Below are positions 39,390-39,880 of a DNA stretch of 64,000 bases, in pieces. The stretch is from a virus. The stretch's first letter is position 1. Each line of letters opens with the position of its first letter. The position numbers and the translations under genes were made by a program. The DNA is taken from IMG/VR virus record IMGVR_UViG_3300022204_000005. One strand, 5' to 3'. Under the pieces are notes generated by a model. That model did not search any database. It was not told where the DNA came from and saw only the letters and a list, made by a program, of their open reading frames with translations.

Positions 39390-39880
39390 AATATGGTGTC
39401 TGAGCATTATAAGTCTCTACCAAGGATGGTAGGTCTTTAAAGATGTTCGGATTGCCTGTGGAGGTGGTAGTGTCCACAGCGCAACTAGCCTATACCATTA
39501 TGCTGTTAGGTTTAAACCTAACCAGATGATGGGTTCGTAGGCAAATAGAAGCTCTTTAGGTTTGTTACCTAACCAAAGTAGGTTACCAACTTATCAGTTA
39601 GACTGATGAGTTGAGGAGATTCAATTTCTCCTTTTGGTTTTCCAGGGTCCGAGAGGGTGTCCTCGTCCGACAATAGCACGGTCTAATCTCTTACCCTGTA
39701 GTAAAAAACGACGTGTATACGAGGACTGCCAAAACCAGGGTGGGGTTTTGAGTAACGCCCTAAGGATAACGATGATCTAGGTTCTTAGGTTATCCAGGGG
39801 ATATTATTGAGAGACACGGGGATTTAGGTTTTTTGTCTTAACTGTGTCGCCCGTAAGAGTAAAATTATAAAGCTCTTACG
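39390..39880 (+). ncRNA. large ornate ncRNA candidate (~480 nt)
   Basis: no ORF; at least nine helices, a long-range closing helix GTGTCT/AGACAC and pseudoknot GTCCTCGT/ACGAGGAC. Confidence 0.55.

Follow-up and report, generated by a model that had tools for sequence, protein, structure and literature searches.

A structured non-coding gap in a phage tRNA island that may be a composite of tRNA look-alikes and spacers rather than one large RNA

The window analysed here, 64 kb of viral DNA, is part of a 77.5-kb ENA sediment-metagenome contig, and its genes lie almost all on the + strand. Most of its open reading frames (ORFs) are orphans, and for most of those tested a PHROG or Pfam match was absent. 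No other stretch of the window that lacks a credible + strand ORF is as long as positions 39289-39979 (691 nt). This gap is bordered by the stop of a SWIM zinc-finger ORF at 39288 and by the start of the next small ORF at 39989. Inside it only two frames occur, one of 48 aa with a TTG start and the last part of another, 57 aa long, with a GTG start; the former (39634-39780) was dropped as a coding candidate because its start context is implausible. An earlier note on this DNA had reported about 480 nt without an ORF in a gene-dense genome, at 39390-39880 (hereafter the stretch), and this description holds for the whole of 39289-39979. A 15-codon ATG frame (MVSEHYKSLPRMVGL) at 39392-39439, with AGGA 7 nt ahead of it, overlaps the 5' side of the hairpin called HP1 below and may be due to chance. 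In a Logan assembly made independently from the source run, the sequence of the stretch is identical, with zero variants.

The gap lies in a tRNA island. ARAGORN calls nine tRNA genes in the window and Rfam adds two weak ones. The tRNA genes at 38578, 38771, and 41005 are on the same strand as the gap, which places it beside tRNA genes as is typical of ROOL/GOLLD-like RNAs. Further downstream, two neighbouring weak tRNA-model matches (43 and 35 bits), uncalled by ARAGORN, were observed at 42924-43057.

A clue to the host comes from an FtsH-like AAA+/M41 protease of 715 aa encoded at 43104-45251, whose closest relatives are 67-76% identical over the first 300 residues. The four contexts fetched for these relatives look chromosomal, so that they offer no phage context, and three of the four are labelled Myxococcota/Myxococcales. 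The gene looks host-derived, and because its relatives sit in contigs labelled Myxococcota, the phage host is probably a Myxococcota bacterium. The relatives lie in 'fvmX' neighbourhoods and some carry inteins. Elsewhere in the window, 500-1500 is the most strongly folding stretch on both strands, with a GC content of 0.64-0.66 vs ~0.45 elsewhere. It starts at a tRNA-Pro-like element (514-590) and contains G runs, including six GGGGGG within 779-994; GC declines gradually from there to 12 kb. This region could be another structured RNA or foreign DNA. The exact 11-mer CACAAACACAC occurs at 12 sites in 5383-55655 (e.g. 38951), at most about 50 nt before start codons and inside CA-rich leaders, and could be a translation or transcription signal of the phage. 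The 13.5 kb of contig beyond the window hold almost exclusively orphan ORFs, along with one SSB and one WGR-domain protein. Genes for a capsid, a terminase, or a polymerase were not recognised, suggesting that the element has diverged strongly or extends well beyond 77.5 kb.

The window was scanned for T arms (a 5-bp stem with a TTCRANY loop), and the matches were then checked for a 7-bp acceptor closure. All 17 matches of the scan were on the + strand, against 0 on the - strand, and each lies in a tRNA or a tRNA mimic. The acceptor closure lies directly 3' of the T arm in 14 of the 17; the exceptions, each a genuine or reported tRNA gene, are tRNA-Met (37097-37171), the weak Rfam tRNA at 42990-43057, and a tRNA-Lys reported to be split by an intron. 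By a rough estimate, the combined test yields about 0.01 false positives per 64-kb strand. Three look-alikes lie in the gap (Table 1). Look-alike 1 consists of a 7-bp acceptor stem (CCTCTCT/AGAGAGG) and a T arm (AAGGG TTCGATT CCCTT), with neither a D nor an anticodon arm. Look-alike 3 folds into a complete cloverleaf whose central arm is over-long, with a loop of 5 nt, and is called by neither ARAGORN nor the Rfam tRNA model.

Look-alike 2, which the earlier note missed, passes the T-arm and acceptor test. Its acceptor stem (39572-78/39632-38) is followed by an 8-nt linker, a central arm at 39587-39613 closed by a UAG triloop, and a T arm at 39615-39631 (GGAGA TTCAATT TCTCC) with a textbook loop. 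This fold, at -27.0 kcal/mol, is 0.9 above the minimum free energy (MFE) of the segment (-27.9 kcal/mol). The CCA in the trailer is 2 nt out of register. The tRNA model gave no match to look-alike 2 at E up to 10 (91 nt), and ARAGORN was silent. Like a canonical tRNA (RF00005), 39572-39638 has a 7-bp acceptor stem, a 5-bp T stem, the loop UUCAAUU, and a length of ~67 nt; unlike one, it has no D arm, and its central arm has 12 bp and a 3-nt loop in place of an anticodon loop. It is a look-alike, not a tRNA. Decay of former tRNA genes was rejected as an origin of the look-alikes, which have no similarity to the phage's tRNAs and no tRNA-model matches.

The trailers of the non-decoding look-alikes at 39293, 39572, 39882, and 41461 all begin with TTT, whereas four of the eight ARAGORN-called tRNAs compared have a trailer that begins with ACT (ACTTGG, ACTGGT, ACTGAG). 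The two kinds of trailer may represent a separate processing signal. A terminator-like hairpin with a T-rich tail at 39613-39643 coincides with the T arm of look-alike 2, so this hairpin could act in termination instead.

Table 1. Features of the gap and of its separately folded pieces, with folding z-scores against shuffled sequence on each strand
Feature	Position	Strand	Description	z, + strand	z, - strand
Look-alike 1 (minihelix)	39293-39344	+	T-arm and acceptor scan; trailer TTTCC		
Spacer A	39346-39571	+	~225 nt; chain of four strong hairpins	-5.6	
HP0	39347-39385	+	11-bp perfect hairpin with AT-rich top; pair probability 0.97	-4.8	-3.3
Piece	39347-86	+		-4.8	
Piece	39395-39485	+		-5.2	
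HP1	39398-39452	+	55-nt hairpin; basal 11-bp helix with four G-U; tip CUACCA-AGGA-UGGUAG	-4.8 (-22.1 kcal/mol)	-2.5 (-9.8)
HP2	39453-39483	+	3+7-bp hairpin (CTGTGGA/TCCACAG) with 10-nt loop; pair probability 0.95-0.99	-2.7	-2.3
Piece	39486-39545	+		-4.9	
HP3	39488-39542	+	55-nt hairpin, ~22 bp (GCCUAU, CCAUUAU, CUG, UUAGGU and partners)	-4.85	-2.8 (-2.76)
TAGGTT boxes (six)	39507, 39557, 39579, 39778, 39786, 39825	+	Hexamer count		
Piece	39543-88	+		-0.6	
Small hairpin	39556-39571	+	UUAGGU-UUGUU-ACCUAA; near-copy of HP3 tip; last in spacer A fold		
Look-alike 2	39572-39638	+	T-arm and acceptor test; trailer TTTCCA		
Piece	39585-39634	+	Both arms of look-alike 2 together	-6.0 (also given as -5.95)	-3.7
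Piece	39633-39770	+	Candidate pseudoknot region	-0.7 (-0.72)	
Spacer B	39640-39881	+	~240 nt; weakly structured; 25/200 shuffles as good	-1.16	
Piece	39762-39800	+		-1.2	
Piece	39800-82	+		-3.0	-2.0
Look-alike 3	39882-39964	+	Cloverleaf MFE; T-arm and acceptor scan; trailer TTTAG	-2.4	

On the + strand, 39380-39890 folds to -171.7 kcal/mol, with a z of -5.6 and 0 of 100 shuffles as good. By GC-corrected folding energy the stretch ranks within the top 5 of 255 windows, and by local perfect helices of at least 7 bp it ranks first in the 64 kb. The thirteen helical pairings that the earlier note had listed are all present in their places, although in four of them (GCCTAT/GTAGGC, the 12-mer, GGGTG/CGCCC, and ACCAT/ATGG) the two strands are imperfect complements that pair through a G-U or in a shifted register. 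Perfect-helix counts were compared with 500 dinucleotide shuffles, taking as local a span of up to 70 nt. Local helices of at least 6 bp number 18 vs 5.5 in the shuffles, and those of at least 7 bp number 9 vs 1.35. At spans above 70 nt, the counts are 21 vs 19.4 (at least 6 bp), 5 vs 5.06 (at least 7 bp), and 1 vs 1.3 (at least 8 bp). The excess over chance is confined to local hairpins and the long-range helices are at chance level, indicating that the pairs GTGTCT/AGACAC, TGGTTTT/AAAACCA, and GGGTG/CGCCC carry no statistical weight; the first of these had been put forward earlier as a long-range contact.

Folding in pieces (Table 1) likewise leaves the pseudoknot part, the TGGTTTT/AAAACCA closure, and the GGGTG/CGCCC helix indistinguishable from shuffled sequence. 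The sub-region in which the earlier note had placed a pseudoknot and nested helices is about as stable as shuffles, whether taken as 39633-39770 or as 39640-39881, these being nested-fold energies that give pseudoknots no credit. The same caveat applies to spacer B, whose candidate pseudoknot would combine 39643-48/39693-98 with 39659-66/39719-26. Spacer B ends in hairpins at 39813-48 and 39852-80, the 9-bp last one stopping 1 nt before look-alike 3, and apart from these two it has no structure beyond chance.

Spacer A is the sole part with strong evidence of selected structure. Its first hairpin, HP0, begins 2 nt past look-alike 1, and its small last hairpin directly abuts the acceptor stem of look-alike 2. 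Alignment revealed two near-identical hairpins, UUAGGUUU...ACCUAACCA, in the stretch. Moreover, 6 of the 16 copies of TAGGTT in the 64 kb fall within 324 nt (39507 to 39830); the other loci of the window with hexamer clustering of at least six are all coding or simple repeats. The paired hairpins and the TAGGTT cluster suggest a putative repeated binding site. Several small-RNA candidates were dropped: a CsrB-like sponge (a by-eye count gave ~9 GGA vs ~8 expected for the length), a mini-CRISPR or repeat decoy (just two 25-nt copies, 50 nt apart), and a ToxI-like RNA (E 7.9, which is noise).

The family-model search proposed earlier was carried out with the covariance models of Rfam 15. No family matched the stretch at its gathering score, nor at E up to 10 with lax filters over 39150-40050, and this includes ROOL (RF03087), GOLLD (RF01998), and the bacterial type A and B RNase P RNAs. 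Rfam includes tmRNA models, and ARAGORN found no tmRNA either, in agreement with the earlier statement that signatures of tmRNA and RNase P RNA are absent. With both programs blank, ROOL, GOLLD, tmRNA, RNase P RNA, and the other curated families have no detectable member at this locus. A reported group I intron at 45787-46479 (tRNA-Lys), used as a control, was also missed by Rfam even at E up to 10, so the blank is weak evidence, not proof; the miss is a reminder that the Rfam model has limits for ORF-bearing introns.

Homologue collection, also proposed earlier, yielded no relative in any collection searched. Blastn in distant mode found no homologue of the stretch among 50,697 phage records or 72,556 plasmids, and BLAST found none in 406 genomes (five MAGs reached via the FtsH-like loci and 401 genomes of that phylum, titled as Myxococcota). 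A single-sequence covariance model of 39395-39545 recovered only itself from 151 Myxococcota genomes and the whole 77.5-kb contig. No paralogue was detected by nhmmer or blastn in the remainder of the window or at the contig ends. An IMG/VR pattern for the duplicated hairpin gave 18 chance matches without extended similarity, and a JGI metagenome pattern for the pseudoknot core gave 5 chance matches. A pattern for the three-box arrangement had at least 120 matches in IMG/VR; among those listed none showed extended similarity, several were tandem within one contig, and some lay in giant-virus MAG contigs; they are probably repeats. An SRA index placed the stretch in one run only, the probable source run; no RNA run was listed as containing it. 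The neighbouring genes were equally isolated: the SWIM zinc-finger protein matched only itself among 5.8 billion proteins, and a 282-aa neighbour only itself among 1.84 billion representatives. IMG/VR scans with the 61-aa, 282-aa, and FtsH-like neighbours found nothing related, and a scan with the SWIM protein matched just its own short generic zinc-finger motif.

One alternative, the earlier note's reading minus membership of ROOL or GOLLD, is that the gap holds a single large RNA of ~490-535 nt, a new single-member family in which look-alike 2 is an internal domain and the flanking look-alikes only mark the ends. Large RNAs with embedded tRNA-like modules exist, as in tmRNA and YrlA. Such an RNA is favoured by the whole-stretch z of -5.6 and by the length of the gap, which exceeds that of any other non-coding gap in the window; the nested-fold statistics leave pseudoknots uncredited. 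Its location favours it as well, since many ROOL and GOLLD genes sit in tRNA islands (PMC5737381; PMC12286853), and the stretch shares with them several hundred nt of non-coding structured sequence beside phage tRNA genes. Unlike ROOL and GOLLD, however, it has no model match and no long-range helix or pseudoknot support, and it is split by look-alike 2; it is not a detectable member of either. The sole helix that closes the whole RNA in the ensemble has 3 bp and a probability of 0.52, and the 3' half folds no better than shuffles. No GNRA or UNCG tetraloop was found among the hairpin loops read from the computed folds, and RNase P would be expected to cut the acceptor/T-arm module mid-stretch. 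Together with the blank family and homologue searches, this makes one large RNA unlikely. The earlier proposal of a ROOL/GOLLD-like or new large RNA therefore survives in part: the locus is non-coding, lies in a tRNA island, and is densely structured on the + strand, but a single ornate RNA is not supported, given the blank Rfam search, the chance-level long-range pairings, and the look-alike at 39572-39638.

The reading that we favour, with belief and doubt in about equal measure, is that the gap is a composite block of non-coding elements in the tRNA island, cut at the look-alikes to release the spacers, and not one large RNA. With an acceptor/T-arm look-alike mid-stretch, the gap resolves into three look-alikes split by two spacers, in the order look-alike 1, spacer A, look-alike 2, spacer B, look-alike 3. 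Transcription of the block would run along the + strand and take in the adjacent genes and tRNAs. Bacterial RNase P cleaves model hairpins that have no more than an acceptor stem, a T stem, and a T loop (PMC11143913; PMC6614837), and does so at the canonical site (PMC11143913). The look-alikes keep this RNase P-recognised module of stacked acceptor stem, T stem, and T loop and so would be cut, presumably at their 5' ends, with trimming at their U-rich trailers. Such cutting would free spacer A, the look-alikes, and spacer B as separate pieces. The end hairpins of spacer A, flush with the predicted cut sites, would shield the released RNA from exonucleases, and the terminal hairpin of spacer B beside look-alike 3 would protect that piece likewise. 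Our best guess for spacer A is a stable hairpin RNA whose repeated UUAGGUUU/ACCUAACCA hairpin boxes would bind or decoy a protein. Counting against the composite block are the whole-stretch z, which is equal on both strands, and, for look-alike 2, the missing tRNA-model score, the CCA out of register, and the terminator-like hairpin at its T arm.

The hairpins could also act in cis, with no stand-alone RNA at all. They would then punctuate a long early transcript, for instance as sites for RNase III or RNase E, as 3' stabilisers, or as terminators, and the spacers would be degraded once processing is done. Phage RNase III sites, such as those of T7, are about the size of HP1 and HP3 (~21-22 bp), and both the terminator-like hairpin at 39613-39643 and the lack of structure in spacer B fit this view. 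However, one gene boundary needs far fewer than the ten hairpins that 0.5 kb contains here, more densely than anywhere else in the window, terminator-like sites are not enriched (3 vs 1.5 +/- 1.6), and the repeated TAGGTT boxes are left unexplained. We give cis punctuation a low probability. A bolder form of the processing idea, which we find quite doubtful, is that spacer A or all of 39346-39881 represents a new orphan class of stable phage RNA, with the look-alikes as RNase P/RNase Z punctuation and the UUAGGUUU boxes capturing a host or phage protein.

A DNA-level element, either a replication origin or a protein-binding region with TTAGGTTT iterons, the AT-rich segment 39347-39394, and inverted repeats, is a further alternative. 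Six direct TAGGTT boxes, an AT-rich palindrome, and the equal whole-stretch z on the two strands are what such an element would offer. The + strand does have an advantage of 28 kcal/mol, which equals the gap between the shuffle means and so points to base composition as its source. At the level of single hairpins the picture differs: z is better on the + strand in all six hairpin-bearing segments compared (Table 1), and this loss of significance on the opposite strand is unexpected for a cruciform or an iteron array. The helices of the stretch contain 24 G-U pairs. The four in the basal helix of HP1 favour selected structure in a + strand RNA over a DNA-level element, and nothing speaks more strongly for a structure of + strand RNA than the strand contrast of HP1. 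In addition, the boxes are irregularly spaced (50, 22, 199, 8, and 39 nt), the cumulative GC skew makes no turn here, and no replication gene lies nearby. A DNA-level element is thus very improbable.

Least probable of all, to the point of being hardly credible, is a known ribozyme that Rfam missed as it missed the intron at 45787-46479, such as a group I intron that is degenerate or lacks an ORF. The group I model (RF00028) does not match. There is no interrupted host gene, because each of the flanking look-alikes has a closed acceptor stem of its own, and no P3-P7-type pseudoknot can be drawn around P4-P6, the sole candidate having 10 nt between its 5' strands. A hammerhead ribozyme was also dropped: CUGAUGAG in 39602-39613 is one strand of the 12-bp helix, and the hammerhead GAAA is absent.

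For the composite block, the nearest analogues in kind would be the stable non-tRNA RNAs of the T4 tRNA cluster and the tRNA-like punctuation of transcripts. The T4 species 1 and 2 RNAs are co-transcribed and processed with the phage tRNA cluster, and tRNA-like punctuation is known from the mitochondrial tRNA punctuation model and from MALAT1/mascRNA. The spacers would resemble the T4 RNAs as small structured RNAs with no assigned function among phage tRNA genes, freed by tRNA-processing enzymes, but here the processing signals would be non-decoding look-alikes and the predicted pieces would measure ~225-240 nt; similarity in sequence to the T4 RNAs is not expected. T4 tRNA-like molecules and dimeric precursors are among the work cited in PMC11143913. 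The tRNA-like punctuation systems share with the block the principle that an acceptor stem stacked on a T arm suffices for RNase P and can define the ends of neighbouring RNAs, whereas cleavage of the phage look-alikes is a prediction. We know of no description of such an arrangement, with look-alikes as punctuation, in phages of this kind.

At present the locus is one unconserved example, from a phage for which hardly any relatives are known. It serves mainly as a caution, in that a strong folding score and many helices found by hand came from local hairpins and a hidden tRNA look-alike instead of an ornate RNA. If the processing model is true, the phage would use stripped-down tRNA mimics as cutting marks to release small RNAs, and phage tRNA islands would be RNA factories, with a role beyond codon supply.
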